32,000 nt of DNA, from contig NZ_CP007536.1 in assembly GCF_000698785.1 (NCBI RefSeq), positions 330,001 through 362,000 on the forward strand, in the 5' to 3' direction. The notes beneath the pieces are model-generated. The model was not told where the DNA came from and ran no database searches. It saw only the letters and a list, made by a program, of their open reading frames with translations. Below, piece by piece: positions 113 through 15,311 of the stretch (position 1 is the first letter of the stretch; each line of letters starts with the position of its first letter). Made by a program: the position numbers and the translations under genes. This DNA comes from Nitrososphaera viennensis EN76. GTDB taxonomy: Archaea > Thermoproteota > Nitrososphaeria > Nitrososphaerales > Nitrososphaeraceae.

Positions 113-949
113 ATGAAAAATCGACTTGTTTTCTTTGGATTGATAGCCTTGGCGGCTGTGCTTGCAACAACTTCATCCATTGCAGCAATAATACCTAACG
201 CGGCGGCATTCCATACCTTTGGCGGAACATATGTCGTAAACATAATACCTGGCGCCGCTCAACAAGAAAGCCTCTATCATTACTACCCGCCTTCAATTGC
301 GGTCCCAAAAGAAACTGAGGTGGCTTGGTTCAACGGTGATCCAGAGCAGCCACATACCGTAACCAGCGGTAATCCCGGAGGCCAGGATTCAGGAATGATA
401 TTCAACTCCGGAGTCATGTCATATCAGTACTTCTTTCAGTACGAATTCCATCAAGCCGGAGACTATCCGTACTACTGCATGATTCACCCCTGGAGGTTAG
501 GTACGATCCATGTAAGTGACGAAGTCGTACAGGGAAATAACTTTGAATTCTCCACTGGAACGGGCAGCACGTGGAATTTATTGGAATTTGACAGGAACTT
601 GCTGAAATTCGAGCCAACTACCGTGTCGCTTGAGGAAACAACTCCTGCAAGCTATTACGTATCAATAGTCGATAATACGACAAAGCAGACAGTTCACAAT
701 GGATTCTTCCCGTCGACAAACAACCTGCTGATCGAGCTGATATCCAATGACAGCAACGCCAACCAGACAATCACGTATGGCCCAGACAGGGCATCCACCA
801 TACACTCGACTCCCGGAGCATATCATGTTCAAGGCAACTTCGTCAAGACTGGCGCCACGTATGCCATCAACGTAGTCCTATATTCGGTCGATGGAAAACC
901 CTTGGAGTCACCGCCAATGGATCGGTTCCAGCTCAAAGTGGCAGGATAG
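113..949 (+). CDS. Exported or membrane-anchored blue (type 1) copper protein: plastocyanin/amicyanin-like N-terminal domain plus a ~150-aa C-terminal domain of unknown function
   Basis: 278-aa ORF with a hydrophobic N-terminus (MKNRLVFFGLIALAAVLA). Cupredoxin ligand pattern PHTV ... YYCMIHPWRLGTIHV has His, Cys and His, but no Met in the residues after the second His. Confidence 0.75.
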   Translation: MKNRLVFFGLIALAAVLATTSSIAAIIPNAAAFHTFGGTYVVNIIPGAAQQESLYHYYPPSIAVPKETEVAWFNGDPEQPHTVTSGNPGGQDSGMIFNSGVMSYQYFFQYEFHQAGDYPYYCMIHPWRLGTIHVSDEVVQGNNFEFSTGTGSTWNLLEFDRNLLKFEPTTVSLEETTPASYYVSIVDNTTKQTVHNGFFPSTNNLLIELISNDSNANQTITYGPDRASTIHSTPGAYHVQGNFVKTGATYAINVVLYSVDGKPLESPPMDRFQLKVAG

Positions 950-1088: not shown

Positions 1089-1433
1089 TTAGAGGGCGCT
1101 ATCTCCCTTCTCCCTAGTGCCCAAGTCGTAGGCCTCTGCCACGTCATAAACGAATATCTTGCCAATCGCAGAAGTGCCGACGCCAAAAGTCTTAAGGACA
1201 TCTTCTATAATCTCTCTACTCAGGGCGTCAGATACAAGCACCTGTACTTTGGTCCGGAACCCAAACTCTGGTACATACGTCATGACCCCTCTCCCAATCG
1301 TTATTGGTTTTTGTCTTGTGCGTCCTCTTCCCTTGATATCATAAAACGACATTCCTCCAACCTTGTGCTTGTGTAGTAGTTCATTCAGCTGTGGCAGATG
1401 CTCCTGGGGAATAATTATTTCGAGCTTTCTCAT
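1089..1433 (-). CDS. P-II family (GlnB-like) signal-transduction protein
   Basis: MRKLEIIIPQEHLPQLNELLHKHKVGGMSFYDIKGRGRTRQ...IGKIFVYDVAEAYDLGTREKGDSAL aligns along its length with the P-II fold pattern (MKKIEAII...GMTV..V.G.G.Q.......GKIFV....). I chose the ATG at 1433 because the longer track ORF (to 1484) would run through the promoter motif. Confidence 0.85.
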   Translation of the reverse strand: MRKLEIIIPQEHLPQLNELLHKHKVGGMSFYDIKGRGRTRQKPITIGRGVMTYVPEFGFRTKVQVLVSDALSREIIEDVLKTFGVGTSAIGKIFVYDVAEAYDLGTREKGDSAL

Positions 1434-2034: not shown

Positions 2035-2472
2035 ATGAGTGCAGTAAGCGAAATAATGTGCTCCAAGGTTGTAACCATCGACGGCAACTCTGACCCTTCA
2101 GTGCTTGATGTTGTTGGAGAAATGGTCAAGAACAAGACGGGTGCCATCATAATCCTTGAAAATGGGAAGCCGTCGGGCATCATCACGGAGAGAGATATTC
2201 TCAAAAAGGTCTCTGCTCACAACAAAAAGCCGAAGGATGTGCAGGCCAAAAACATCATGTCATCGCCCTTGATAACCGTCAAGGCGTATGATTCTGTCGA
2301 TACAGCTGCCAAAGCTATGACAAAAAACAAAATAAAGAGGCTCCCAATCTTGGAGACCGACGGCTCGCTTGTAGGTATGATCTCTGCGACAGACATTGCC
2401 AAGAAGCTGGCCAAAATACTGGCAGACGACTATAACCGCTACCGCTCATTAAAGGGCGCCCTTGAACTCTAG
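2035..2472 (+). CDS. CBS-domain pair (Bateman module) protein
   Basis: 145 aa with two CBS repeats: IMCSKVVTID...GAIIILENGKPSGIITERDILKKV and IMSSPLITVKAYDSVDTAAKAMTKNKIKRLPILETDGSLVGMISATDI. Confidence 0.9.
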   Translation: MSAVSEIMCSKVVTIDGNSDPSVLDVVGEMVKNKTGAIIILENGKPSGIITERDILKKVSAHNKKPKDVQAKNIMSSPLITVKAYDSVDTAAKAMTKNKIKRLPILETDGSLVGMISATDIAKKLAKILADDYNRYRSLKGALEL

Positions 2473-2619
2473 TCAATAGCGCTCTCTCTTGGTGCCGGTA
2501 TGGCACGCTTGACATGCCCCGCACCACTCGCAGACTTTTGGAGTTTCTGCGCCACACTTGATACACATGGCCTCGGGGCTGTGCACCTTTACTTCATGAA
2601 AGCTGTGGGGCTGTCGCAT
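2473..2619 (-). CDS. Small Cys-rich (zinc-ribbon-like) protein, 48 aa, below the ORF-track size cut-off
   Basis: My translation is MRQPHSFHEVKVHSPEAMCIKCGAETPKVCEWCGACQACHTGTKRERY*, from ATG 2619-2617 to stop 2475-2473. It contains a CxxC...CxxCxxCxxC cluster. It sits 5 nt downstream of ORF 2625..2855 in a different frame. Confidence 0.4.
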   Translation of the reverse strand: MRQPHSFHEVKVHSPEAMCIKCGAETPKVCEWCGACQACHTGTKRERY

Positions 2620-2624
2620 TCTGG

Positions 2625-2855
2625 TCAAAATGAGTGCCTCCTCATCGTGCCCTTTGATTTTGCCTCAACTTTTTTCGGCAGGCTCCTTGCCAAGACCCTG
2701 TCTGTTACTCTTGTCTTTTGAAATTCACCGTTGTGACACCTGTTGGATTGCTCCATGAGCAGTTTTGGAGGCGTGTGATATTTCAAAGCCCGGTACACAG
2801 TGCATGGCAATGTGTTCCTCAGCCGTAAATAATCAGAAAAGGCAATCCCGGACAT
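2625..2855 (-). CDS. Hypothetical basic protein (76 aa)
   Basis: ORF on the same strand as its two neighbouring small genes. No recognisable domain. It could be the N-terminal part of a frameshifted gene continued by 2473..2619. Confidence 0.3.
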   Translation of the reverse strand: MSGIAFSDYLRLRNTLPCTVYRALKYHTPPKLLMEQSNRCHNGEFQKTRVTDRVLARSLPKKVEAKSKGTMRRHSF

Positions 2856-2887
2856 GGAGATGCCAGATCAAAGACGAGTAGTCCTAT

Positions 2888-3193
2888 TCATCGAAGCGGA
2901 AGCGTTCTGACAAAGCGGAGCGTGATGCCGCGTTTTTCATCCTTTTCAAGTATGCATGTTTCGTCCATAGTCATTGGAATTCTTGAAGTCCGCCTTCCGC
3001 ATGCAGGACAAGTTACCTGCATCCGTTTTCCATTCATGCAGGTTGCACACCAGTGGCAGTTGTCGCAAATTTCAAGTACAACATCGGGAAAGTTTTCGCC
3101 GGTAATCTTTCCTTGTCTTGCATTCAGATCCTCGTGGGGTAGAATCTGGCTTTCTGGCGATTCCTCTGCTCTTCGTTCTTTTCTAGGGGGCAT
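2888..3193 (-). CDS. Hypothetical zinc-ribbon protein
   Basis: 101 aa with CDNCHWCATC...TCPACGRR (paired CxxC motifs). It is divergent from the USP gene at 3285 and shares the motif at 3232-3246. Confidence 0.55.
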   Translation of the reverse strand: MPPRKERRAEESPESQILPHEDLNARQGKITGENFPDVVLEICDNCHWCATCMNGKRMQVTCPACGRRTSRIPMTMDETCILEKDEKRGITLRFVRTLPLR

Positions 3194-3231
3194 GATACTA
3201 ACTGCAACTCGTCATAGTTAAGCTTCAGGTA

Positions 3232-3246
3232 TGCAGTGCATTGCAG
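3232..3246. promoter_or_regulatory. TGCA-array motif (canonical 15-mer) between divergent genes 3193(-) and 3285(+)
   Basis: tgcagtgcattgcag, identical to 4201-4215, followed by A/T-rich gtaaatacta (3261-3270). Confidence 0.7.
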
Positions 3247-3284
3247 TATAGCCGTTTCTTGTAAATACTACTCTCTGTCAGATT

Positions 3285-3746
3285 ATGATCATGGTTTCAA
3301 GAATTCTCGTCCCTCACGACGGAACTGAAATGTCAGACAGGGCCCTCTCAAAGGCAACCGAGTTTGCCAAGGCGATGAAGTCGGAGATGGTAATAGTGCA
3401 TATTGTCGACAGCAGGTTCGTGCCGCCGAGTGCCACTCTTGGCTTCATAAGCGATAGAACATCGCTTGAGGGAGCCAAGACTGAGCTTGTCAGAATTCTA
3501 AAGTCCGGCGCAGAGCAAATGCTCAAGGAAAAAATGGCAAAGGTAAAGGCGGATGGCATAAGCGTTGACTTTATCCTAGGAGTGGGTTCTCCTGCTGAAG
3601 AGATAGTCACAATCGCGCGTAGCACCGGGTCAGACTTGATAGTGATGGGGAGCAGACAGCTGTCAAAAGCGGGTCTAGGGACTCTTGGCAGCGTTGCAAG
3701 AAAGGTGTCAGAGACTGCAGATTGCCCTGTGATGATAATACGTTGA
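3285..3746 (+). CDS. Universal stress protein (UspA family)
   Basis: RILVPHDGTEMSDRAL...VIVHIV...DLIVMGSRQLSKAGLGTLGSVARKVSETADCPVMII, the typical USP ATP-binding pattern G-x2-G-x9-GS. The start may be the second ATG at 3291. Confidence 0.9.
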   Translation: MIMVSRILVPHDGTEMSDRALSKATEFAKAMKSEMVIVHIVDSRFVPPSATLGFISDRTSLEGAKTELVRILKSGAEQMLKEKMAKVKADGISVDFILGVGSPAEEIVTIARSTGSDLIVMGSRQLSKAGLGTLGSVARKVSETADCPVMIIR

Positions 3747-3755
3747 TTTTTCTTA

Positions 3756-4145
3756 TTATGTCATGAACTTGATGTCGAGGGTCTTTATCTTCCATCCTTT
3801 CTTTTCGTCCGGCTTCAGGTCAAACGTAAAGCGGCCCTTTACCCTGTCGCCACGTTCAAAGGTAACAAGAGCAGTCAATTGGCCCTCCTCTTGACCATGC
3901 TTGGCCTTCAATATCTTGATCTTGCGGTGCATGTTTCTGTTTGCCATCATGGCTACTTTGAGAAATGGCTCGATTAATGACCTGCCATGCAGTCCCTGAG
4001 CTTTACTGAAGGGCTCATAAACTGTCGCGTCGTAGTCGAACAGGTCAAGAAGGCCATCCACGTCTTTGTCCTCTATCAGCTTGAAGAACCTGTACACGAT
4101 GTTCTCCCGGCTGTCGGGACCTTTGACGTTGCCTTTAGGCATCAC
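3756..4145 (-). CDS. NTF2/SnoaL-like fold protein
   Basis: 129 aa. ENIVYRFFKLIEDKDVDGLLDLFDYDATVYEPF... resembles the N-terminal pattern of SnoaL-like/NTF2 domain proteins. Confidence 0.65.
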   Translation of the reverse strand: MMPKGNVKGPDSRENIVYRFFKLIEDKDVDGLLDLFDYDATVYEPFSKAQGLHGRSLIEPFLKVAMMANRNMHRKIKILKAKHGQEEGQLTALVTFERGDRVKGRFTFDLKPDEKKGWKIKTLDIKFMT

Positions 4146-4200
4146 GGCATGCGTTCACCTTTGCAAACAATATGGCATATTGATAGATAACCTGTCGGAT

Positions 4201-4215
4201 TGCAGTGCATTGCAG
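4201..4215. promoter_or_regulatory. TGCA-array motif (canonical 15-mer) upstream of the NTF2-like gene
   Basis: tgcagtgcattgcag. A TATA-like ttatctatcaatat (minus strand, 4177-4190) lies between the motif and the start at 4145. Confidence 0.7.
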
Positions 4216-4228
4216 TTTATCTGAATGC

Positions 4229-4837
4229 CTATCTCAATACGACCTCTGCGATAGTGGTATTCGGCGTGACGTGTATCTCTGCCCTTACCTTTGCGAGGTT
4301 CTGAAATATCAAGGTGAGCAGTTCCTTTGTAAAGAGCGACCAGTTCTCGCCAAGCTCGTGCTGAACTACAAAGACATGCTTGCTTGAACCTTCTATCCTA
4401 TGATCGGCCTTTATGCCGGAGACCTTCATGTATTCTTCAAGAACCGAGAGCACCACCCATAGGTTGTAATGCTTTTTCATGAAAAGCACAGAGTCTTTCA
4501 TCAGATTAAAGGCGATCTGAGCAGCCTCTTTCACAATCAAGTCTCGGTACGTTTCTACTTCCTTTATGCCTCCTGCCTTTGCAGAAGCTATTGCCTTGTC
4601 AATGAGTGTCGAGAGCATCAGTTTTGGCACTGGCATCATGCCAATCTTGCTCTCGTACCTGTCCCACTCAGCATAGCGCTTGAGCACCTGGTTGACAAGG
4701 ACGTTGAGTGAAATTTCGCGCGTATCAGCCTCGCCCTGGAGCTCGTCTATTACCGACGAGTCGATCCTGAACGTGACGCTGCGAGTCTTTTTTGATTGGT
4801 AGGGAGAAGCTCCTTGGCCTTCAGAATCCGCAGACAT
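4229..4837 (-). CDS. Putative transcription regulator: N-terminal ribbon-helix-helix (CopG/Arc-like) domain plus an uncharacterised C-terminal domain
   Basis: RSVTFRIDSSVIDELQGEADTREISLNVLVNQVLKRY fits a beta-strand/helix/helix RHH pattern. The remaining ~130 aa are not recognised. Confidence 0.65.
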   Translation of the reverse strand: MSADSEGQGASPYQSKKTRSVTFRIDSSVIDELQGEADTREISLNVLVNQVLKRYAEWDRYESKIGMMPVPKLMLSTLIDKAIASAKAGGIKEVETYRDLIVKEAAQIAFNLMKDSVLFMKKHYNLWVVLSVLEEYMKVSGIKADHRIEGSSKHVFVVQHELGENWSLFTKELLTLIFQNLAKVRAEIHVTPNTTIAEVVLR

Positions 4838-4881
4838 ATGTATACAGTGCCAGCTGTGAAATTCGCCTTAAAAAGGCTTTT

Positions 4882-5337
4882 TCAATGCACCAAGAGGACA
4901 GGACATCTGGAAAGCTCGGCGACTTTGCGTGCAACACTTCCAAGCACCTTGAGTTTCGATATTCCTTTGAGCCCCTTGCTACCCATTACTATGAGGTCAG
5001 TCTCTTCCTTTCTTGCCGTCTCAAGTATCAGCAAAGCAGGGTCGCCCACAGAGTGCACAAGCTTCACGTCCAGGCCCTGTTTTTTGCAGTTTTCTACAAG
5101 CGATTCTAATGATCTGACAACATGTCCTTCAGACGACTTGACAAGAAGTTCTGCTGCCTCGTTTATAGCTGCATTCGCTGCCTCACTGTATGTATAGATG
5201 AGCGAAGGAAGGGCCGTGACAGTCAGAAACGTCACCCTTGAGCCTGACAACTTGGCAATATACACTGCATGTTCGGCCGCCCTTTCAGAGAACTGTGAGC
5301 CGTCGTATGGGACGAGTATTCTGTGGTACGTGTTCAA
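4882..5337 (-). CDS. Universal stress protein (UspA family)
   Basis: HRILVPYDGSQFSERAAEHAVYIAK...DLIVMGSKGLKGISKLKVLGSVARKVAELSRCPVLLV. The TTG start at 5337 overlaps the TGA of the upstream CBS gene. Confidence 0.9.
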   Translation of the reverse strand: MNTYHRILVPYDGSQFSERAAEHAVYIAKLSGSRVTFLTVTALPSLIYTYSEAANAAINEAAELLVKSSEGHVVRSLESLVENCKKQGLDVKLVHSVGDPALLILETARKEETDLIVMGSKGLKGISKLKVLGSVARKVAELSRCPVLLVH

Positions 5338-5891
5338 ATCTGTCTCAGGTCACCTTCCAAAAGGCCGCTTCCAATGTGCAGCCTGTCGACGTGCTTTGAG
5401 AGATCCTGTTTGCTCTCAAAGCCTGAACCACAGTACGGGCAGGTTATGTTGGCGCCCACACCTGTTTCGATCAGTCCTGCCTCGATACTCTTGCCCGGCA
5501 TGTTCCCCACAATTGACATGAGCGTTAGCAGGCCTATTATCTCTCCTTTTCTCTTGACTGGAAGTCTTCTGATTCCCTTATTCCTCATGATAAGAGTTGC
5601 TTCCAATACAGTTGCGGACTCGTCTACTGTAATGAGGGGAGTGCTCATGATCTCTTTGAGAGTTGTCTTGAAAGGTCCTTTGTTTTCCGCCACTACCTTG
5701 TAGAGAATGTCCCTCTCCGTGATAATCCCTACAAGTTCCTTTGTTCCCTTGTGAGAGACCAACACGCTTGAAAAGTCCTTTTTCTTCATTGCTTTTACAG
5801 CTTCTGCCACGCAGGATGTTTCGTCCATCACAAGCATGTCAGGAGTGGCCAATTCCCCAACTTTCCTTCCAAGATCTGCTTGCATGAGCAT
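5334..5891 (-). CDS. CBS-domain pair fused to a C-terminal C2H2-type zinc finger
   Basis: The start is set at ATG 5891 (MLMQADLG...). Two CBS repeats are followed by ITCPYCGSGFESKQDLSKHVDRLH (C-x2-C-x12-H-x4-H). Confidence 0.85.
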   Translation of the reverse strand: MLMQADLGRKVGELATPDMLVMDETSCVAEAVKAMKKKDFSSVLVSHKGTKELVGIITERDILYKVVAENKGPFKTTLKEIMSTPLITVDESATVLEATLIMRNKGIRRLPVKRKGEIIGLLTLMSIVGNMPGKSIEAGLIETGVGANITCPYCGSGFESKQDLSKHVDRLHIGSGLLEGDLRQI

Positions 5892-5916
5892 GGTACGACG
5901 AGGGAACGATATATCG

Positions 5917-5938
5917 TGCATGTATGCAGTGCAATGCA
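5917..5938. promoter_or_regulatory. TGCA-array motif between divergent CBS genes 5891(-) and 5985(+)
   Basis: tgcatgtatgcagtgcaatgca. It is flanked by TATA-like gatatatc (5908-5915, for the minus gene) and taaaatatt (5954-5962, for the plus gene). Confidence 0.65.
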
Positions 5939-5984
5939 CAATATTCCTAGATGTAAAATATTGCCGAAGGCCAAGCGTTCCTAT

Positions 5985-6485
5985 ATGGGTATAGAGTCAA
6001 TTCCAGTTTCAAGTATCATGACCAAGGGGGTCAGGACAGCAGGGGAGGATCAGACAATTAGGGCTGTGGCAGAGATGATGGACAAACACGGAATTGGGAG
6101 CGTAGTGATTACAGACAGCAAGGGCTTGCCATCGGGCATAATCACGGAGCGTGATATAGTCCGACTCGTGGGCTCTCCCAAAACCTCTCTTGCAGCCCTT
6201 GCAAAAAGCGTCATGAAAAAACCTGTCATAACGGCTGATGCCATGATGTCGCTAAAGGATGCACTGCAGACGATGCAGGCCAAGGACATACGAAGGCTGC
6301 CTGTCGTTGAAAAGGGTAAGATGATTGGTATTGTAACTGACAAGGATATTTTCCGGGCGATATTAAAGAACCAGGCATTGGTATCAAGCATAGTCAGCGA
6401 CAGCGTTCTTGTAGAGAACAGGCCAGTCTACGAAAGGCTTTCCGAATTCATGCTGAACGAGATATATCAGCCGGGTGGTAGATAA
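5985..6485 (+). CDS. CBS-domain pair protein
   Basis: The start is set at ATG 5985 (MGIESIPVSSIMTKGV...). Repeats are GIGSVVITDSKGLPSGIITERDIV and DIRRLPVVEKGKMIGIVTDKDIF. Confidence 0.85.
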   Translation: MGIESIPVSSIMTKGVRTAGEDQTIRAVAEMMDKHGIGSVVITDSKGLPSGIITERDIVRLVGSPKTSLAALAKSVMKKPVITADAMMSLKDALQTMQAKDIRRLPVVEKGKMIGIVTDKDIFRAILKNQALVSSIVSDSVLVENRPVYERLSEFMLNEIYQPGGR

Positions 6486-6909
6486 AGTGTATTCAAAGGT
6501 ACTTGTTGCGACAGATGGATCAGAGTGTGCAAGAAGGGCATTAGAATCTGCCATAAAGATGGTCAAGGCTCCTGATGGAACTCTGACAATTATGCATGTT
6601 CTTCAGCTTTCACCTGCAGTTGGCTTTGGAAAAAAACTCACAGAGGAGATAGAGTCGTTATTTCTAAAGGATGCAACTGCATTTCTAGAGGATCAAAAAC
6701 GAGAAGTCGAGGCAAGAGGGGTAAAGACAGACACCATACTGGTAAAGGGCAATCCCGCTCAAGCTATACTACATGCTGCAGAGGAAATGAATGCAGACCT
6801 GATAGTTATTGGAAGCCGGGGCCTTGGAGGAGTCAAGGGGCTCTTCCTTGGAAGCGTTTCAAATGCAGTGGTGCACGGCTCTAAAATTCCAGTTCTGGTC
6901 ACGAAATGA
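6475..6909 (+). CDS. Universal stress protein (UspA family)
   Basis: KVLVATDGSECARRALESAIKM...DLIVIGSRGLGGVKGLFLGSVSNAVVHGSKIPVLV. The GTG start at 6475 overlaps the end of the CBS gene; an alternative GTG is at 6487. Confidence 0.85.
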   Translation: MVDKVYSKVLVATDGSECARRALESAIKMVKAPDGTLTIMHVLQLSPAVGFGKKLTEEIESLFLKDATAFLEDQKREVEARGVKTDTILVKGNPAQAILHAAEEMNADLIVIGSRGLGGVKGLFLGSVSNAVVHGSKIPVLVTK

Positions 6910-8243
6910 AAGGAAATGCATTGAAGGCCAAAGAACCTGGACTTAAACAGAGCATAAGCCTTTTTCAGGCGATTATGTATGGCACTGGCCTGATCCTGGG
7001 TGCCGGCATATACGTTCTGATAGGTGACGTCGCAGGAATCGCGGGCAACGCAGTGTGGATATCATTTGCTCTGGCCGCAGCGATCGCTACGTTTACCGGC
7101 CTGAGCTATGCCGAGCTGGCTTCAATCTTTCCAAAAAGCGCCGCTGAATACGTGTTTGTCAAGAATACCTTTGGCAACAATTTGTTTGCGTTCATTTCTG
7201 GATGGCTCATCATATTTGTTGCAGTAGTGTCCGCAGCTGCAGTAGCCATTGGCTTTTCCGGCTATCTTGCCGCCTTTTTGCCAGGGCTTGACCAGTCTGT
7301 CTCTGCAATGTTACTTGTTGCAGTGCTTTCTGTTGTGAACTTTATCGGCATTCGTGAGTCGATGTGGACGAATACTGCATTCACGCTCATAGAGATCGCA
7401 GGTCTCGCGATAATCATATGTGCTGGCCTGCTGTTTACCGCCTCTTCCCCTGCTGCGACGAACTACTTTGAGATGCCGTCAGACGTGACCTCCTTTCCAC
7501 TTGCTTTTGGTGCTATAGTTGGCGCGGCCAGTCTTGCGTTCTTTGCTTATTTTGGATTTGAGAATCTGGCAAATATATCTGAGGAAACCAAGAATGCTCG
7601 CAAAGCGATTCCGCTTGCACTTGTTGCATCCATTGCAATTACGACGGGTATTTACATGCTGGTGGCAGTGTCGGCAGTTGCACTTGTCGGATGGGAGGTG
7701 CTTTCGTCGTCGAATGCTCCCCTCACACTTGCGGCCGAAAAGGTGTTTGGCAAGGCTGGCATTGTTATTCTATCATCTATAGCGCTTTTCGCGACTAGCA
7801 ATACTGTGTTGATGATGCTTGTGTCCGGCTCACGTATAATATTTGGAATGTCGACTGACAAGGCACTTCCCTCATTGCTGTCTTCTGTTCATCTAAAGAC
7901 CAAAACCCCGCTCTATGCTGTGCTCGCCATTATGATGCTGGTGATAGGAGTCGTGGCGGCATCTTCAGCAAGGATAGACGCCATGGTTAGGGTTGCCGTC
8001 TTTGGGATTTTCATAGTCTACATGTTTGTCAATCTTTCACTAATATGGCTCAGGTACAAAAAACCAGATATGGAGCGGCCTTTTCGTTCACCCTTGAATA
8101 TAGGGCGGTTTCCTATGTTTGCAGGTCTTGGCCTCGTAACCTCAATTGCAATGCTTACCCAGTTTGACTTGGCTACTGTTGTGGCTGGTATGGCAGCAGC
8201 CGCATCAGGGGTGGTGGCATATGCAATACTGAAAAGAATTTAG
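6906..8243 (+). CDS. Amino acid/polyamine/organocation (APC) superfamily permease
   Basis: 445 aa and about 12 hydrophobic segments. N-terminal pattern LFQAIMYGTGLILGAGIYVLIGDVAG...SYAELASIFPKSAAEYVF is typical of APC transporters. Its ATG overlaps the USP stop (ATGA). Confidence 0.9.
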   Translation: MKGNALKAKEPGLKQSISLFQAIMYGTGLILGAGIYVLIGDVAGIAGNAVWISFALAAAIATFTGLSYAELASIFPKSAAEYVFVKNTFGNNLFAFISGWLIIFVAVVSAAAVAIGFSGYLAAFLPGLDQSVSAMLLVAVLSVVNFIGIRESMWTNTAFTLIEIAGLAIIICAGLLFTASSPAATNYFEMPSDVTSFPLAFGAIVGAASLAFFAYFGFENLANISEETKNARKAIPLALVASIAITTGIYMLVAVSAVALVGWEVLSSSNAPLTLAAEKVFGKAGIVILSSIALFATSNTVLMMLVSGSRIIFGMSTDKALPSLLSSVHLKTKTPLYAVLAIMMLVIGVVAASSARIDAMVRVAVFGIFIVYMFVNLSLIWLRYKKPDMERPFRSPLNIGRFPMFAGLGLVTSIAMLTQFDLATVVAGMAAAASGVVAYAILKRI

Positions 8244-8245
8244 AA

Positions 8246-8250
8246 TTTTT
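8246..8250 (+). terminator. Oligo-T tract directly after the permease stop
   Basis: tagaatttttc: a T5 run 3 nt after TAG 8241-8243. Confidence 0.35.
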
Positions 8251-8389
8251 CTTGGCATATTGGTGGGGACTCAAACATCATGTGTTCTATGCACTACTGC
8301 TGGCTTTTTAGTTTCACAGCAATCGCGTACATTGTGGACCTTGCGGAATAATCTGCCGCTAATGGGGAGTTCATTATTTGTCTCTCGAG

Positions 8390-8403
8390 TGCACTGCCGT
8401 GCA
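8390..8403. promoter_or_regulatory. TGCA-array motif variant upstream of the HTH gene
   Basis: tgcactgccgtgca (TGCA, TGCC, TGCA in 5-bp phase). TATA-like actttattcc is at 8416-8425 and the ATG at 8445. Confidence 0.5.
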
Positions 8404-8444
8404 CTGGAATCTTGTACTTTATTCCATTGACTTCTCCATGTAAC

Positions 8445-8618
8445 ATGATGGCTAGCGAAAATAAAGAAGTCGTCAACGTTGATCCGTGGATACTAAAGCG
8501 GCTCGCAAGGATGTACGAGTCCGGCCTTTCAATAAAAGAGATTTCAGAACAGCTTGACATTGGCGCAAGGTCTGTGAAGAGGATCCTGGGACTACTAGGG
8601 TACGTTGTTGCGGACTAG
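8445..8618 (+). CDS. Small helix-turn-helix DNA-binding protein (57 aa)
   Basis: MMASENKEVVNVDPWILKRLARMYESGLSIKEISEQLDIGARSVKRIL. GLSIKEISEQLDIGARSVKRIL is a classic HTH (resolvase/sigma70-region-4-like). The start is set at ATG 8445 downstream of the TATA-like box. Confidence 0.65.
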   Translation: MMASENKEVVNVDPWILKRLARMYESGLSIKEISEQLDIGARSVKRILGLLGYVVAD

Positions 8619-8624
8619 ATAGAG

Positions 8625-9428
8625 GTGTTCAAGTTGCAAGACATCTCCATAAGGGAAGCGGCGCCTCACATTTTTAGACGGCCGTTACTGTATGTGAGCC
8701 CTTTTGATTCGATGCTTCAGGTGGCCACCTTTATCGCTACAGGGCCTCAGATCTACGTTGATGGTCTAGTTGTGCTGGAAGAAAACAAGCTTGCAGGCAG
8801 AATAGGGGGGTATGCCCTTGCCAACCACATTTTGAAAACTAGGGAAAGGTGGCTTGATGGCAAGGCTTTACAAATTATGGAAGCTCTTGAGCATGCGTTG
8901 CGGGAAGACGACTCCATTACAAAGGCGCTACGGGTCTTCATGGAGACTAGATTTGCATTCATGCCTGTGTCATCTAATGGCAAAATAGTAGCTTCTCTAT
9001 CTCTCAGGGACCTGATAAATTATGCCATGGGGTTGAAAGTTGAGGTACAAGGGTTGACATCTCCATTGCTAACTATCGATAATGACACAAGCGTATTGGA
9101 CGCACTTGAGTTCATGGTTGAAAAGGGTGTCCGAAATATTGTCTTTTTGAAGCAAGATGGCCCCTATGTCATCAACGACAGAAAGATCCTTGCATATCTG
9201 CTCCATTCTCAAACGCGAGATCTTATATCGCGCAGGGGCTTTGAAGTACTTGCAACTATAAAGGTGATAGGCATTGGCGCGCTCAAGGGAACATCTGTAG
9301 ACCTGAGGAGCGAGGCAGGTTCTGTGGCACATCTCTTTTCTAACATCGAAACATCGTGCCTGTTTGTGGGTAACAGGATACTAACGCCTTGGGATCTGGT
9401 GATGAAAGGTTCTGGTTTCATTAGTTAG
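8625..9428 (+). CDS. Divergent CBS-domain protein (about four degenerate CBS repeats)
   Basis: GTG start 6 nt after the HTH gene. Repeats include LRVFMETRFAFMPVSSNGKIVASLSLRDLINY and LDALEFMVEKGVRNIVFLKQDGPYVINDRKIL. Confidence 0.6.
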   Translation: MFKLQDISIREAAPHIFRRPLLYVSPFDSMLQVATFIATGPQIYVDGLVVLEENKLAGRIGGYALANHILKTRERWLDGKALQIMEALEHALREDDSITKALRVFMETRFAFMPVSSNGKIVASLSLRDLINYAMGLKVEVQGLTSPLLTIDNDTSVLDALEFMVEKGVRNIVFLKQDGPYVINDRKILAYLLHSQTRDLISRRGFEVLATIKVIGIGALKGTSVDLRSEAGSVAHLFSNIETSCLFVGNRILTPWDLVMKGSGFIS

Positions 9429-10482
9429 GCGTGATCACTGCTCTTCCTGTTATCTGGCCGCTCTTCAGTAGGTTGATTGCATCGTTGATGTCTTCGAGAC
9501 TGAATGTCTGAATCGTATGCTTTACTTTGCCTTGCCTTGCCAGCTCTATGACCTCACAAAGTTCGTTGTAGTTGCCCCATAGCGAGCCGGTTATCTGATA
9601 CTCGTTTATTACGGTAGGCATCAATGGCACACACACTTGGGCGCCAAAAAGGCCGACTACTGCAAGCACGCCTCCCTTTGAAAGCAGGCCTACTGATACG
9701 GAAATAGTATTTTCTGCGCCGACACAATCGACAATGACGTCGACGCCGCGGCCTTGCGTTATTTCCTTCACCTCTTTTCTTGTGCTCCCGGATAGTCTGA
9801 TTGCATGGTCGGCGCCGAGCTTCCTCGCAAACTCTAGCTTTTTGTCATTTCTGTCGATGGCTATTGTTGTTGAATTTGGCGCAAGCATCCGCGCATACTG
9901 AATTCCATACGATCCTAGCCCTCCAATACCCACTACTGCAATTGTAGTCCCAGGCACAAGCATGTGACGAAATCTCCTGATGGCGCGGTATGGAGTCAGA
10001 CCTGCGTCTGTCAGCGGCGCAAGCTCTTCCGGCTTCAGCCTTGTACCTGCTGCCACTTTTATCAAGAACCTGTAGGAAGGAACTGCAATGTATTGCGAGT
10101 ACCCGCCGTCGTATTGTGACAGCCCCGGCCATTTGGCAATAGGGCACATTTGCTCGTCGCCTCTTTTGCATATCTGACAGGAACCACAACCCCATCCGCC
10201 AAACACCGCCACTAGATCGCCTCTTTCAAACATCCCCTTTGGGACCGAGTCTCCTATCTCCTCTACCCAGCCTGCAACTTCGTGCCCCGGTATCTTTGGC
10301 AGCGCAAGCGGTATGGCTTCTTTCCATTCGCCGTTCATCAAGTGGAGGTCGCTATGGCACAGTCCGGCGCCGCCTACTTTTACTATTATTCCTTCACCTC
10401 TTGGGCTTGGCATCTTGACGGGTTCAACCACCAAGGGTCTTTGATACTCGTGGATTCTTGCTGAGAGCATGGTTTGAGCCAT
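9421..10482 (-). CDS. Zinc-dependent alcohol dehydrogenase (medium-chain dehydrogenase/reductase family)
   Basis: GAGLCHSDLHL (catalytic Zn Cys/His), PGHEVAG, the structural Zn cluster CGSCQICKRGDEQMC, and the Rossmann motif VVGIGGLG. Confidence 0.9.
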   Translation of the reverse strand: MAQTMLSARIHEYQRPLVVEPVKMPSPRGEGIIVKVGGAGLCHSDLHLMNGEWKEAIPLALPKIPGHEVAGWVEEIGDSVPKGMFERGDLVAVFGGWGCGSCQICKRGDEQMCPIAKWPGLSQYDGGYSQYIAVPSYRFLIKVAAGTRLKPEELAPLTDAGLTPYRAIRRFRHMLVPGTTIAVVGIGGLGSYGIQYARMLAPNSTTIAIDRNDKKLEFARKLGADHAIRLSGSTRKEVKEITQGRGVDVIVDCVGAENTISVSVGLLSKGGVLAVVGLFGAQVCVPLMPTVINEYQITGSLWGNYNELCEVIELARQGKVKHTIQTFSLEDINDAINLLKSGQITGRAVITPN

Positions 10483-10523
10483 ATATGATCCTGCGAGGCC
10501 ACATCATATTTCAAGAAATGGAT

Positions 10524-10542
10524 TGCAGTGCAACGCAATGTA
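10524..10542. promoter_or_regulatory. TGCA-array motif between the ADH gene (start 10482, minus) and small ORF 10588(+)
   Basis: tgcagtgcaacgcaatgta. It is flanked by TATA-like ttgaaatatgatg (minus strand, 10504-10516) and gaaataaaatt (10554-10564). Confidence 0.6.
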
Positions 10543-10587
10543 CTCTCTAGCTTGAAATAAAATTGCCAAGAACAGCTTGTGAGATCA

Positions 10588-10752
10588 ATGTCTGAAAATG
10601 TAGACGCGGCATCGGATTGGCTGGCAAGGATGGGTGTTAACGTAGAAAAGTTGAGAGTGATGGGGGGACTTACAGATTCTGACGTAATTTCACTTTACCA
10701 TTTCTTGCGAAAATTACTAGAGGTTCGCAGCGGGCATTCCACATCGTCGTAG
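10588..10752 (+). CDS. Small hypothetical ORF (54 aa), below the track cut-off
   Basis: MSENVDAASDWLARMGVNVEKLRVMGGLTDSDVISLYHFLRKLLEVRSGHSTSS*. Promoter geometry is good (motif, TATA-like box, ATG). However, it lies next to a decayed ADH fragment and may not be real. Confidence 0.3.
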   Translation: MSENVDAASDWLARMGVNVEKLRVMGGLTDSDVISLYHFLRKLLEVRSGHSTSS

Positions 10753-10764
10753 TTTGCATTTTGA

Positions 10765-10811
10765 AAGTGGAGGTCGCTGTGGCACAGCCCGGCCCCACTT
10801 TTATTATTACC
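10765..10811 (-). repeat. Relic of a second alcohol dehydrogenase gene (degenerate copy of ADH codons around the catalytic-zinc motif)
   Basis: aagtggaggtcgctgtggcacagcccggccccacttttattattacc matches 10340-10392 of the intact ADH (aagtggaggtcgctatggcacagtccggcgccgcctacttttactattattcc) with a few substitutions and a 6-nt gap. The minus-strand reading still gives GAGLCHSDLH. Confidence 0.6.
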
Positions 10812-10856
10812 ATTTCCAAGACATCCTGCATTAGATATTGTGTCTAAATTTCTGCA

Positions 10857-11314
10857 CTATCTGGTCACCAAGACAAGACAATGGGCGTGCGTGACTACTC
10901 CGCTAGCTACGTTTCCAAGCAAGGACTTCTTTATCCCTGTCTTCCCTTTTGTTCCGATTACGATCAAATCCGCTCTTTCTTTTGATGCATAATTTGCTAT
11001 GGTATCCGCCACGGATGCTACATCAAGAATAGTCTCTGCAGAGGCGATTTTGACGCCATCCTCCGCCGCCATGTCTCTTATCTTGTCATGCCATGCTTCT
11101 GCATATTTTTTGCCCGTTCTGTATAGCGAACAATCACAAGTCCTGCTGCTTTGTAATCGACGTATGGTGGGTTAACTACTGCATGCATGCAAATAATTTC
11201 TGCCATGGACATTTTGGCGATTTTGATGGCATACTTCGCAGCCTTGAAAGAAGAATCTGACCCATCTATTGGCATAAGTATCTTTTTCAACGGAATTTCT
11301 TCAGACAAATTCAC
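10857..11314 (-). pseudogene. Universal stress protein gene disrupted by a -1 frameshift in a homopolymer
   Basis: Two track ORFs together make one USP. ORF 11078..11314 gives ILMPIDGSDSSFKAAKYAIKIAK...; ORF 10857..11072 gives ...DLIVIGTKGKTGIKKSLLGNVASGVVTHAHCLVLV. The downstream frame already reads GKKYAEAWHDKIRDMAAEDG upstream of its first Met. The frames switch at the T6 run 11106-11111 (A6 on the coding strand). Confidence 0.75.
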
Positions 11315-12108
11315 TTCTCCTTTACGTACGCCTCAACCAAATCTCTGGCAGTGACCATTGCTACTATCTTTCCATACCTGGTGAGAGGTAGCCTCTTTAT
11401 CCTGTGTCTTAGCATGAGTTTGCCTGCTTCCTTGGCGCCTATTCCAAGTTTGGCGGTTATGACAGGAGTTGTGCAATAGCCTCCTACTTTCTCCAATCTG
11501 TCCACATTTTCTCCAAGAATCCTATTGAGCAAGTCACGCTCTGTAAACATCGCGTAAGGTGGTCCATTCACGCTTATGACTACGCTACCTATGCCTTTCT
11601 TCAGCATTGTTTTGACAGCACTCAATATTGTACTGTCGGGCTGCAGCGTGACTATCTTGTTTGCCATTGCACCCTCTATTGAGGGGTTAGACTTGCTCTT
11701 TAAAAGCGCCCTGACGATATCGGAGGCAGTTATTATACCGATCAGCCGGTCTGATACGCCGGTTCGCCTGTCCTTCTGAAAAACAAGCAACCTGGCTTTC
11801 TTTGATATCATGGTTCTCGCCGCTTCAAGCACTTCGGTACTGGGTGTCACTCTGGCAACCTTTTGAGTCAACACATACTTGATCTGCTTGTCCGGTATCG
11901 CCTTGTTCAGGGCCAGATGCAACAGCATTTCTCTTTCCGTTAAAATTCCTTCCACCTTTTCACCTTCCGTCACTACTATGTTGCCTATTCCCTTTAGCAA
12001 CATTGTCTGTACAGCATCCGAGAACCGAGTGTCAGGATGGGCTGTTATGACAGGAGAACTCATAAAATCGCCTACCTTTAACAGAGGGTAATCCGTTTGC
12101 AGCTTCAT
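11311..12108 (-). CDS. Tandem Bateman-module protein (four CBS domains)
   Basis: 265 aa with four repeats of the type GIGNIVVTEGEKVEGILTEREML, ARLLVFQKD...LIGIITASDIV, GIGSVVISVNGPPYAMFTERDLL and IKRLPLTRYGKIVAMVTARDLV. Its TGA overlaps the GTG start of the USP pseudogene. Confidence 0.9.
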   Translation of the reverse strand: MKLQTDYPLLKVGDFMSSPVITAHPDTRFSDAVQTMLLKGIGNIVVTEGEKVEGILTEREMLLHLALNKAIPDKQIKYVLTQKVARVTPSTEVLEAARTMISKKARLLVFQKDRRTGVSDRLIGIITASDIVRALLKSKSNPSIEGAMANKIVTLQPDSTILSAVKTMLKKGIGSVVISVNGPPYAMFTERDLLNRILGENVDRLEKVGGYCTTPVITAKLGIGAKEAGKLMLRHRIKRLPLTRYGKIVAMVTARDLVEAYVKEK

Positions 12109-12147
12109 GAACGAGTTTGCTTGTGCATCTTATTTAAGGACAGAGAG

Positions 12148-12161
12148 TGCAGTGCATGACA
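12148..12161. promoter_or_regulatory. TGCA-array motif upstream of the four-CBS gene
   Basis: tgcagtgcatgaca. TATA-like ttatttaa at 12130-12137 lies between the motif and the start at 12108. Confidence 0.55.
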
Positions 12162-12290
12162 TAGAATGCTACATCCAGACATCGCATTCAGTTTTCTTTG
12201 CTACCGAAGATTGATTGGTCGAGGGAGAGGGTAGTCCTTGATACGCTTTTTGCGTAGACTCTGAATGACAGAGGCAATCCGTAGATAAAG

Positions 12291-12313
12291 ATGCAATCTT
12301 TTTAAAGTTGCAT
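12291..12313. promoter_or_regulatory. Inverted repeat bracketing the TATA-like box of USP gene 12333
   Basis: atgcaa-tctttttaaag-ttgcat. The arms contain TGCA and the centre is the TATA-like ctttttaaag, 26-35 nt upstream of ATG 12333. Confidence 0.35.
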
Positions 12314-12332
12314 ATACAATCCTGCCAAGAAT

Positions 12333-12833
12333 ATGTTCAAGAAAATTCTGGTACCGTATGACAGCTCAAAGCCATCTGACAAGGCTGCTAAATATGCGGT
12401 AGATCTTGCCAAGCACATTCTACCTGATTCTGGCGGTGGCTGCGAGATCATTCTTCTTCATGTTGTACCTGAAATTCCAGCATCACCTGTTTTCCTTGAG
12501 CGTCCCGTCCGCACAAAGACTGGCGAAGTAATCCCATTGTCAGAGTATATCAAGCGTCTTTACGTCGAGATGAAAGCTCATGCAGCAGAGATGCTTGAGA
12601 AGAAAAAGAAAGATCTTGAACCCATTCTAAATGCCAAGGCAACAATTAGAACAATCGTATTAATTGGAGATCCTGTTTCAGACAAAATAGTAGAGCTAGC
12701 CGGGAACGAAAAAGTGGACATTGTTGTCATTGGAAATGTAGGCTTGAGTGGCATATCAAAGCTAAAGACCCTTGGCAGCGTGTCAAGAGGCGTTAGCGAA
12801 AGGGCGTCATGTCCAGTCTTGATAGTACACTAG
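12333..12833 (+). CDS. Universal stress protein (UspA family)
   Basis: KKILVPYDSSKPSDKAAKYAVDLAK...ILLHVV...DIVVIGNVGLSGISKLKTLGSVSRGVSERASCPVLIV. Confidence 0.9.
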   Translation: MFKKILVPYDSSKPSDKAAKYAVDLAKHILPDSGGGCEIILLHVVPEIPASPVFLERPVRTKTGEVIPLSEYIKRLYVEMKAHAAEMLEKKKKDLEPILNAKATIRTIVLIGDPVSDKIVELAGNEKVDIVVIGNVGLSGISKLKTLGSVSRGVSERASCPVLIVH

Positions 12834-12966
12834 AGACTGGTTTGCAGTAAAATCCCGCATGGAATGAAATTTCATTTCTAGTTGGAAGCGCTTGACTGTT
12901 AGAATCCATTGCGACAGATGCATCTGGATTTGGTGTATGTGACTGAGGCTAAAAGTACCGCTGCTT

Positions 12967-12981
12967 TGCAGTATAGTGCAG
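12967..12981. promoter_or_regulatory. TGCA-array motif variant upstream of USP gene 13035
   Basis: tgcagtatagtgcag (TGCA, TATA, TGCA in 5-bp phase). TATA-like ttttaactta is at 13001-13010. Confidence 0.5.
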
Positions 12982-13034
12982 AGTATCCATTCCATACTGC
13001 TTTTAACTTACTAACAAACTCTAAGTGTTACGAC

Positions 13035-13484
13035 ATGGTGGAGATAAGCAGATTCAAAAAGGTGCTTGCAGCCGTCGATGGTTCTTTGGAATCTATGAAA
13101 GCCGTAGATACTGCAATTTCGATATCAAAAAAATACGATTCCTGGTTAACGGCCCTTTACGTTTTACATACGCCTTTTGGTGGAGATCTCTATCCGCAGC
13201 GTGTATCGTACAAAGAATTCCTTGATGATGTCAACAAAGAAACACGCGTTTGGTTAGAGGAGATTCAGAAGAAGGGTAAAGAGAACAACCTAGAGATAGA
13301 GACAAAAATGATAGAGACTTCAAAATCGACGCCGTCTGAAATCGTACGATACACCCAAGTAGACAAGACTGACTTGATTGTAATTGGTTCAAGAGGGAGA
13401 TCTGGACTTAAGAAAATATTGCTTGGTAGCGTTGCATCGAGTGTCCTGACGTATGCGCCATGCCCTGTAATGGTTGTAAGATGA
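13035..13484 (+). CDS. Universal stress protein (UspA family)
   Basis: The start is set at ATG 13035 (MVEISRFKKVLAAVDGSLESMKAVDTAI...). C-terminal DLIVIGSRGRSGLKKILLGSVASSVLTYAPCPVMVV. The longer track ORF from 12909 would include the promoter motif. Confidence 0.85.
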   Translation: MVEISRFKKVLAAVDGSLESMKAVDTAISISKKYDSWLTALYVLHTPFGGDLYPQRVSYKEFLDDVNKETRVWLEEIQKKGKENNLEIETKMIETSKSTPSEIVRYTQVDKTDLIVIGSRGRSGLKKILLGSVASSVLTYAPCPVMVVR

Positions 13485-13647: not shown

Positions 13648-13669
13648 TGCAATGCAGTGTACACATGCA
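13648..13669. promoter_or_regulatory. TGCA-array motif upstream of the small membrane protein gene
   Basis: tgcaatgcagtgtacacatgca, followed by TATA-like aataaataat (13671-13680) and ATG 13706. Confidence 0.55.
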
Positions 13670-13934: not shown

Positions 13935-13948
13935 TGCAATGCACTGTA
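13935..13948. promoter_or_regulatory. TGCA-array motif (distal copy) upstream of the wHTH gene
   Basis: tgcaatgcactgta, near-identical to 13648-13661 (tgcaatgcagtgta), followed by TATA-like ggaaatatagc (13956-13965). Confidence 0.5.
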
Positions 13949-14671: not shown

Positions 14672-14691
14672 TGCATCTGCACTGCATTGCA
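14672..14691. promoter_or_regulatory. TGCA-array motif (four units) upstream of the RDD operon
   Basis: tgcatctgcactgcattgca. An A/T-rich ttctaatagga (14706-14716) precedes ATG 14730. Confidence 0.65.
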
Positions 14692-14729
14692 GTGAAATCC
14701 TTGTGTTCTAATAGGATAAGCTGGTAAAA

Positions 14730-15311
14730 ATGCACATGCCTCCAGATCCGAGTAGTCGACCTGATGGAGCCGAAAGGGGTCAACATCCAGCGCAACAACC
14801 AGAGATAATTTTAGCAAGGTGGAGCACAAGATTCTGGGCGTGGCTTGTTGATTTCCTGATAGTAAATGCCGGTTTGGGAATTATTTTCGGCATACTGTCC
14901 ATGCCGATGTGGCTTTACGGATTCACGAATCCCGGGATGATGTCGCCGATGTATGGTAGCGAATGGTGGAATAACGGTTTTGGTGGGCCATTTAGTTTTG
15001 CTATAAGCAGCCTGGTATTTTTTGCGTATTGGACATACATGGAAGCAAATCACAATGGTCAGTCGATAGGAAAGATGCTTCTGCGCATCAAAACTACGGA
15101 TCTTGAAGGCAAGCAAGCGAATACGACAAGCATCGCAATCTCTAGCTTTGGAAAGGCCTTTCTGCTGCCAATAGACGTATTCTTTGGTTGGATATTCACA
15201 AATGACAAGAGGCAGAGATTGTTAAGCAGAGCTGCAAATACTATCGTGATAAGAGCTACGGATGACGACACCGGAAGAGCACGGAGTAGTGCTAGATATC
15301 AAAAGGAGTGA
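14730..15311 (+). CDS. RDD-family membrane protein
   Basis: ARWSTRFWAWLVDFLIVNAGLGIIFG ... GQSIGKMLLRIKT ... RQRLLSRAANTIVI. The pattern and the three TM segments are typical of the RDD domain. Confidence 0.8.
   Translation: MHMPPDPSSRPDGAERGQHPAQQPEIILARWSTRFWAWLVDFLIVNAGLGIIFGILSMPMWLYGFTNPGMMSPMYGSEWWNNGFGGPFSFAISSLVFFAYWTYMEANHNGQSIGKMLLRIKTTDLEGKQANTTSIAISSFGKAFLLPIDVFFGWIFTNDKRQRLLSRAANTIVIRATDDDTGRARSSARYQKE

Follow-up and report, generated by a model that had tools for sequence, protein, structure and literature searches.

Why CBS-domain genes and universal stress protein (USP) genes are crowded together, and why a CBS gene is followed directly by a USP gene three times, is the question raised by positions 2035-13484 of a 32,000-nucleotide stretch of the Nitrososphaera viennensis EN76 chromosome (contig NZ_CP007536.1, positions 330,001 to 362,000 of the forward strand; hereafter the window, numbered from its first letter). 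An initial annotation made from the letters of the window had proposed that the three CBS-USP cassettes encode a stoichiometric sensor module. The genes are argued here to form, probably, a conserved stress regulon defined by a promoter motif, TGCAnTGCAnTGCA, in which operons led by a CBS gene often carry a USP gene. The same signal stands at almost every promoter of the island, which points to one co-regulated stress set rather than a new stand-alone two-protein device.

A promoter element shared by the island genes

The window was compared with 79 related loci (911 kb), almost all from Nitrososphaeraceae, which were obtained by scanning one genome per species with the family of the CBS gene at 5985 (genes are named by their left-hand coordinate). 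Annotation of these loci with hidden Markov models made from the window paralogues gave 192 CBS genes, 89 USP genes and 2 CBS-USP fusion genes. Domains were called with Pfam gathering scores (cut-off of 24 bits for Usp, PF00582).

TGCAnTGCAnTGCA is a quasi-palindromic element common to the upstream regions of the island genes. Thirty-nine matches to TGCAGTGCATTGCA with up to 3 mismatches were found in the window, against 5.45 ± 2.65 in shuffles, and nearly all of them fall in 1-15 kb. Locus L001, which reaches 3.5 kb to the left of the window, contains 13 matches with at most 1 mismatch where 0.13 are expected, and one of its sites lies 40 nt upstream of an HSP20 gene. Across the 79 loci, 195 matches at this stringency were found against 3.1 ± 2.0 expected, an enrichment of about 60-fold. 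In 72 of 131 cases in the related loci, 40-49 nt separate the 3' end of the element from the start codon; element-to-start distances in the window are about 33-55 nt, mostly 36-55 nt. The element is followed by TTC and an AT-rich, TATA-like box. This layout fits leaderless or near-leaderless mRNAs with a putative transcription-factor site just upstream of the B recognition element (BRE) and TATA box.

About 13 transcription units of the island are preceded by TGCAnTGCAnTGCA. The sites and the genes that they serve are as follows.

1470-1483: PII-like gene
1981-1994: divergent pair 1495/2035
3232-3245: divergent pair 2888/3285
4201-4214: SnoaL-like gene
5925-5938: divergent pair 5334/5985
8390-8403: 8445-8625 unit
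10519-10542: alcohol dehydrogenase (ADH) gene
12148-12161: 11311 gene
12967-12980: 13035 gene, weak
13648-13661 and 13935-13948: small open reading frames (ORFs)
14678-14696: RDD gene, at the right-hand end of the island
3070-3088 of locus L001: a further motif site

The perfect site at 3232-3245 lies 39 nt upstream of the 3285 USP gene and 38 nt upstream of the divergent ORF 2888-3193. Another perfect site, TGCAGTGCAATGCA at 5925-5938, lies 33-39 nt from the start of a CBS gene with a zinc finger (5334) and 46 nt from the start of the 5985 CBS gene, whose orthologues have a site 43-52 nt upstream in all 16 cases checked. The sites at 8390-8403 and 12148-12161 (2 mismatches) are 41 nt upstream of 8445 and 39 nt upstream of the 11311 gene, and the weak TGCA site at 12967-12980 is 54 nt upstream of the 13035 USP gene. 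In each of the three window cassettes the CBS gene has a site upstream, and in none of them does the USP gene. When the 120 nt upstream of each gene in the related loci were considered, the motif was present for 28% of CBS genes, 13.5% of USP genes, 4 of 16 APC permease genes, both fusions and 8% of other genes. The remaining motif-driven genes in relatives encode SnoaL-like proteins (the commonest family outside CBS and USP, 8 of 40), plastocyanin/cupredoxin, multicopper oxidase, HSP20, PII, RDD, radical-SAM and ADH proteins. No mention of the motif in Nitrososphaera was found in the papers searched.

A further site with 2 mismatches (17086-17099) was observed 54 nt upstream of a cupredoxin-like gene at 17154-17615. 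Since plastocyanin/cupredoxin genes carry the motif in relatives, the regulon may reach this far to the right.

Gene content and limits of the island

CBS and USP genes make up 11 of the 17 genes in 2035-13484, and none was found in 13.5-32 kb of the window. All six USPs match the Usp family over its full length (92-129 bits), and CBS stretches (PF00571) number two each in the 2035, 5334 and 5985 proteins, four in the 11311 protein and two weaker ones in the 8625 protein. Pfam confirms all five CBS genes and, with the frameshifted one included, all six USP genes where the initial annotation had placed them. Relatives of the CBS proteins in the PDB include MJ1225, MJ0100 and Rv2626c.

The high density that had been noted was also borne out. 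There are 5.2 USP genes per 10 kb here, compared with about 0.17 per 10 kb for the genome average derived from published counts: a table of a 2025 review (PMC12159084), parsed from a garbled copy, gives 7184 annotated USPs in 167 Nitrososphaeraceae species, or about 43 per species, which places the local density at roughly thirty times the genome average. Three codirectional adjacencies of a CBS gene and a downstream USP gene were observed in the window where 0.88 are expected from the local gene mix (P(≥3) = 0.03). This is only mildly unusual given the local density; what stands out is the clustering, more than the pairing.

The region is probably the central part of a stress-response island, about 16 kb long, that is conserved on Nitrososphaera chromosomes. 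Its limits are an HSP20 gene just left of the window and the RDD gene at 15.3 kb, and its gene order is kept across at least eight Nitrososphaera species-level genomes. No Rfam family was detected in 1-16 kb of the window. Close to 18 kb, roughly where the island ends on the right, the GC content rises in a step: it is about 44-49% in 1-18 kb and about 52-58% in 18-32 kb.

The three CBS-USP cassettes

The genes of the three cassettes are listed below.

4882..5337, minus strand: USP with the x10 motif, cistron 2 of cassette 1 (Pfam Usp E = 1e-30)
5334..5891, minus strand: CBS pair with a C-terminal classical C2H2 zinc finger, CPYCGSGFESKQDLSKHVDRLH, cistron 1 of cassette 1 (Pfam CBS E = 2.5e-22)
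5985..6485, plus strand: CBS pair with a conserved C-terminal tail, RPVYERLSEFML..PGG, cistron 1 of the CBS-USP-permease operon (Pfam CBS E = 6e-31)
6475..6909, plus strand: USP with the canonical ATP motif GSRGLGGVKGLFLGS, cistron 2 of the same operon (Pfam Usp E = 2.5e-37)
6906..8243, plus strand: APC-family amino-acid permease, cistron 3 (Pfam AA_permease_2 E = 3e-54, 185 bits)
11311..12108, minus strand: protein with four CBS stretches (4xCBS) resembling MJ1225, cistron 1 of cassette 3 (Pfam CBS E = 6e-40)
10857..11314, minus strand: USP pseudogene in two frames, cistron 2 of cassette 3 (rejoined protein 96.5 bits against Usp)

Stop and start codons had been reported to overlap at all three CBS-USP junctions. 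This holds for cassette 1, where the TTG start of the USP overlaps the TGA stop of the CBS-zinc-finger gene (ATTTGAAC), and for cassette 3 (GTGA at 11311-11314), as does the ATGA overlap of the USP and APC permease genes at 6906. The true start of the 6475 USP is more likely the second GTG, at 6487 and 1 nt past the CBS stop, because MYSKV... then aligns with MVSK... of the orthologues, which begin 0-4 nt past the stop; that junction would abut rather than overlap. The non-ATG start described for each USP is correct for the N. viennensis genome and peculiar to it, the orthologous junctions having mostly ATG. Gaps at orthologous CBS-USP junctions are 0-19 nt and conserved, and the view that these pairs are genuine operon-type junctions is supported.

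The 5985 protein has 989 homologues, mostly from Nitrososphaera, and a conserved tail of 40 residues; among PDB relatives it matches Rv2626c with E = 4e-15. The 6475 USP has MJ0577, Rv2623 and TeaD among its PDB relatives, and its orthologues always lie between CBS and APC genes. NCBIfam matches of the APC permease are at subfamily level only, far under the equivalog cut-offs. The best PDB match of the 11311 protein is MJ1225 (E = 1e-18). The frame of the 10857 USP switches at or near an A6 run at 11106-11111, and the same split is present in both public N. viennensis assemblies (CP103305.1 and CP104300.1); it is either a real pseudogene in the strain or a shared homopolymer error. An intact orthologue occurs in locus L014, with a 9-nt gap after a 4xCBS gene.

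The ATP-binding motif that the initial annotation had assigned to these USPs, G-x2-G-x9-G-[ST], is present in its strict form in two of the six (6475 and 13035). The other four vary or lack it: the spacing is x10 in the 4882 and 12333 USPs, the 10857 pseudogene has G-N and the 3285 USP is without the second glycine.

Origins of the cassettes and pairing in relatives

Duplication of the cassettes as units had been considered, and it is contradicted by the comparison of their parts. The cassettes are read as having arisen separately, not by duplication of one module, because the architectures of the CBS partners all differ (pair with C2H2 finger; pair with conserved tail; 4xCBS), the paralogues are mutually 28-36% identical, and the three partnered USPs fall in separate clades, among unpartnered USPs, of a neighbour-joining (NJ) tree built with 85 USPs of the window and the related loci, a tree that is weak and unreliable at about 30% identity. 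Grouping of the paralogues by single linkage at 42% identity merged everything, and the NJ tree was used instead.

USP partners have been gained or lost between close species. The CBS-zinc-finger gene has a tight downstream USP in the window and in locus L006 only (2 of 28 family members), and the USP of the 4882 clade in locus L004 is divergent to a CBS gene. The triad of CBS, USP and APC genes is kept only in close Nitrososphaera; in distant orthologues the CBS gene is followed directly by the APC gene or the USP comes after the permease, and the 6475-type USP is missing.

Enrichment of CBS-USP adjacency was found in the 79 loci and is modest, with 51 adjacent pairs against 39 ± 4.9 in within-locus shuffles. 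Codirectional pairs have the CBS gene first in 19 cases and the USP gene first in 3, and gaps of at most 19 nt are present in 10 of the 19; a further 12 neighbours are divergent and 14 convergent. USPs account for 19% of the genes less than 1 kb from the central CBS gene, and their share drops to 5% at a distance of 8-10 kb. Once orthologues were collapsed, about five independent tight CBS-USP families and the fusion remained. Recurrence, order bias and one fusion indicate joint use of two kinds of regulatory protein predicted to bind adenine nucleotides. A small sample of six CBS-only proteins, taken from other archaeal lineages or from unassigned ones, had a USP beside the queried CBS gene in none of six loci; a CBS-USP pair was present in the flanking DNA of one of these loci (L209) and in none of the other five. 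Five head-to-tail CBS-only genes with no USP nearby were observed on a Methanosalsum natronophilum contig (locus L084, 2484-6731); CBS tandem arrays therefore exist independently of USPs.

In the fusion genes a low-complexity linker joins a CBS pair to a USP, with the CBS domains first as in the cassettes; these genes were found in Nitrososphaeraceae metagenome-assembled genomes at L046 260-1426 and L047 8318-9415 (both minus strand). A homology search yielded about 44 clusters with both Pfam domains, mutually at least 73% identical, and in an exhaustive profile search of 1.84 billion 50%-identity representatives a single one spanned both halves, the ten other multi-stretch matches being CBS-only. 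On these searches the fusion is confined to one narrow Nitrososphaeraceae clade. The 2025 review describes Thermoproteota USPs as single or tandem only, so the CBS-USP fusion architecture appears to be unrecorded there. The halves are closest to the 5334/2035 CBS genes and the 4882/3285 USPs, and the USP half has ASHR instead of the G-x2-G ATP motif. AlphaFold2 (AF2) modelling of the single chain, on a shallow alignment of 12 sequences at least 76% identical, gave a pLDDT of 55.6 and a pTM of 0.41, with no confident inter-domain packing; the model was too poor for packing to be judged.

Could each CBS-USP pair be a dedicated heteromeric sensor, in which a CBS dimer and a USP dimer are held equimolar by translational coupling? 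This is the best of the alternatives and is nonetheless unlikely. Overlapping stop and start codons, or gaps of 0-19 nt conserved in orthologues, would suit such coupling, but they are an ordinary operon feature and the USP and APC genes overlap too. The CBS-first order bias would also suit it, as would a natural fusion of the same order that has the motif upstream and halves most like window proteins; yet the fusion belongs to one narrow clade, its USP half is without the glycine ATP motif and its AF2 model does not pack confidently. The authors of PMC12974425 propose that CBS regulates UspA. Against a fixed heteromer stand the unrelated CBS architectures in the three cassettes, the USPs from separate clades and a USP that is dispensable, as in the zinc-finger CBS family, in the distant orthologues of the permease operon and in the 10857 pseudogene.

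Chance juxtaposition is very unlikely. It would hold that USP and CBS genes, expanded in Nitrososphaeraceae (the 43 or so USPs per species parsed from the review table), simply gather in the same variable regions, and the small excess of adjacencies over expectation, both in the window and in the related loci, together with the presence of all four orientations, would be compatible with this. The tight junctions are, however, conserved across species, the order is asymmetric and a fusion exists. The shared promoter motif argues that the co-location is regulated and not passive, and similar CBS-USP operons are co-expressed in the distant Nitrosopumilus.

The weakest alternative, that the low-GC 18-kb stretch is horizontally acquired cargo of an integrated mobile element, could appeal to UspA (arCOG02053) and CBS (arCOG00606) being the third and fourth commonest arCOGs in thaumarchaeal integrated elements (PMC6563490) and to the lower GC content of 1-18 kb (about 47%, with about 54% in 18-32 kb), but was rejected as extremely improbable, since no tRNA gene was found in the window, no integrase or transposase domain was found among the window ORFs scanned, and synteny is conserved as described above.

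Several points weigh against the preferred reading, a stress regulon defined by TGCAnTGCAnTGCA. The TGCA motif was not found upstream of the 12333 USP, and several window sites have 2 mismatches. The order bias after collapse amounts to about 5-6 independent families against 1-3, which is suggestive and not significant alone. The composition of the regulon is skewed to CBS neighbours, because the 79 loci were picked via a CBS gene. The motif is essentially absent from the CBS loci sampled outside Nitrososphaeraceae (one 1-mismatch match in nine loci; Nitrosopumilus, the source of the expression data, was not searched), and a metagenome scan with TGCANTGCANTGCANTC, which was at chance level and serves as a negative control only, gave none upstream of a CBS or USP gene among the 120 matches listed. 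Finally, co-induction in N. viennensis is deduced from the shared motif and by analogy with other genera.

Proposed working and candidate regulators

Under the stress-regulon reading, the three cassettes would be operons driven from the motif promoter of the CBS gene, with the USP as a later cistron. Stress or energy limitation would turn on the island as a whole: heat and hypoxia induce USP, CBS and HSP20 (and, under hypoxia, PII) in other ammonia-oxidising archaea. CBS and USP proteins would then sense ATP, AMP or related ligands and relay this to targets, and the target in the 5985-8243 operon may be the co-encoded APC permease. For this operon, regulation of the permease by CBS and USP in the cytoplasm is the likeliest role, by analogy with TeaD/TeaABC and with archaeal permease-USP fusions. 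The regulator that reads TGCAnTGCAnTGCA could be the CBS protein with the C2H2 zinc finger or a 202-aa protein resembling ribbon-helix-helix (RHH) regulators, encoded next to cassette 1.

The finger of the 5334-5891 protein follows the pattern C-x2-C-x3-F-x5-L-x2-H-x3-5-H and scores 18.5-21.8 bits in Pfam against cut-offs of 25-27 (zf-C2H2_4: 21.8 against 27). It is nearly invariant and occurs in 28 of 197 CBS proteins of related loci. The protein is a possible ligand-gated or nucleotide-sensing DNA-binding protein, with an architecture unusual for an archaeon. The second candidate is the following gene.

4229..4837, minus strand: 202-aa conserved protein, downstream of the CBS-zinc-finger gene in most species

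This protein is 75-92% identical across Nitrososphaera, far above its neighbours, and falls in 1419 clusters with no Pfam domain on record. Its N-terminal part matches CopG_antitoxin below threshold (E = 0.0034, 18.5 bits against a cut-off of 28), and the AF2 model has two helices at 27-62 with pLDDT below 50. A profile search of the PDB gave no match. The C-terminal alpha/beta half, in a low-confidence model, has H-NOX and TRAPP Bet3/TPC6 as its nearest natural structures (TM 0.40-0.47). The protein is possibly an RHH regulator; as the element contacted by CopG itself includes two TGCA motifs (PMC3413123), it is plausible that TGCAnTGCAnTGCA is read by an RHH protein.

A fuller scheme can be offered as a long shot. 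The regulon would be a lineage-specific one for stress or energy, with TGCAnTGCAnTGCA read by a ligand sensor encoded in the island itself, either an adenine-nucleotide-gated CBS-C2H2 transcription factor or the 202-aa RHH-like protein, whose C-terminal half has a faint likeness to ligand-binding folds of the H-NOX/Bet3 type, and paired CBS and USP nucleotide sensors would gate proteins such as the APC permease.

Comparison with known systems

The CBS-USP pairing had been thought uncharacterised, but CBS-uspA operons are already in print. CBS genes were found in uspA operons of Nitrosopumilus maritimus, where CBS, its UspA operon partners and HSP20 were made only at the high temperature, 32 °C, and it was suggested that CBS may regulate UspA (PMC12974425, PNAS 2026). 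N. maritimus SCM1 (Nmar_0673/0674 and Nmar_1271/1272/1274) resembles the island in being an ammonia-oxidising archaeon with a CBS-only gene in a uspA operon and HSP20 under stress. It differs in belonging to another archaeal order and in having 8 USPs in total, compared with six in 11 kb here; a cis-element, a fusion and a permease link are not described for its operons. Sponge Thaumarchaeota upregulate UspA, HSP20, CBS and PII in hypoxia (bioRxiv 10.1101/2023.02.27.530229).

The M. tuberculosis DosR/DevR regulon contains an Rv2626c (CBS)-Rv2625c-Rv2624c operon, Rv2623 and hspX (PMC3177182), and Rv2624c is named as a USP in the reference list of PMC11841059. Like the island, this regulon brings together a CBS-only protein, several USPs and a chaperone of the HSP20 family, with a repeated upstream box and a CBS-first operon that ends in a USP. 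The corresponding trait here is TGCAnTGCAnTGCA shared upstream of CBS, USP and HSP20 units, which supports likeness of working and not membership. Unlike the island, where TGCAnTGCAnTGCA stands at a predicted archaeal TATA-type promoter, the DosR regulon is bacterial and is governed by a two-component response regulator on Dev boxes (DevR/DosR, with the kinases DevS/DosT); its inducers are hypoxia, NO and CO. Among the scanned window ORFs, neither a response regulator nor a histidine kinase was found; Dev boxes were not searched for. By analogy, the DosR regulon is the closest functional analogue and not a homologous system.

The teaD gene lies in the teaABC operon. TeaD was published as a USP that regulates the TeaABC transporter of Halomonas elongata, according to a title cited in PMC12159084, and archaeal fusions of an APC permease with two USP domains (permease-USP-USP) are known (PMC3673472). 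Both resemble the 5985-8243 operon in placing an ATP-motif USP with a transporter. TeaABC is a TRAP system, whereas the genes here predict an APC permease and an operon headed by a CBS gene.

The microoxia (FixK2) regulon of Bradyrhizobium diazoefficiens includes the adjacent USP blr2761 and CBS blr2762, induced at low oxygen (PMC6515984). Other USP and CBS genes and an alcohol dehydrogenase are induced as well, as would be so for the island, whereas the regulon is bacterial, has a CRP/FNR-type regulator and, as the locus numbering suggests, has the USP before the CBS gene.

Gene regulation in ammonia-oxidising archaea is almost unmapped. An enriched, sharply positioned element ties CBS, USP, HSP20, PII, blue-copper and permease genes into a testable regulon, with two concrete candidate regulators in a cultivable soil nitrifier, and attention turns to operons within a co-regulated stress island, away from a new two-protein device.

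Other genes of the window

The remaining genes of the island are listed below.

1089..1433, minus strand: PII-like protein (Pfam P-II E = 9e-15); perfect motif at 1470-1483, 36 nt upstream
2035..2472, plus strand: CBS-pair protein of 145 aa (Pfam CBS E = 1e-26) with its own promoter; degenerate motif at 1981-1994, 40 nt upstream
2888-3193, minus strand: conserved 101-aa ORF, divergent to the 3285 USP
3285..3746, plus strand: stand-alone USP with a degenerate ATP motif (Pfam Usp E = 9e-30; no G-x2-G motif)
3756..4145, minus strand: SnoaL-like protein (weak Pfam SnoaL_2 match); perfect motif at 4201-4214
8625..9428, plus strand: divergent CBS protein (Pfam CBS E = 7e-16, 58.7 bits, 2 stretches); homologues in 14 loci
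9421..10482, minus strand: Zn-dependent alcohol dehydrogenase (Pfam ADH_N and ADH_zinc_N); overlapping motif sites at 10519-10542, 36-46 nt upstream
12333..12833, plus strand: stand-alone USP with the x10 motif variant (Pfam Usp E = 8e-26)
13035..13484, plus strand: stand-alone USP with the canonical ATP motif (Pfam Usp E = 3e-29)
14730-15311: RDD-family gene (RDD Pfam match); perfect motif within 14678-14696, 38 nt upstream

The 8625 CBS gene is probably co-transcribed with a 57-aa ORF at 8445-8618. The clade of the 12333 USP was found downstream of an APC permease in loci L010, L011, L012 and L014.

A 278-aa secreted-looking protein is encoded at 113-949 (plus strand). It has a type-1 copper-like C..H..M stretch (YYCMIHPW) and no Pfam match, and its homologues occur in 14 related loci, some preceded by the TGCA motif. 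A three-domain S-adenosylmethionine synthetase is encoded at 25346-26488 (plus strand); it matches the Pfam S-AdoMet_synt N, M and C domains, which we take to mark the bacterial/eukaryotic-type enzyme rather than the archaeal type.

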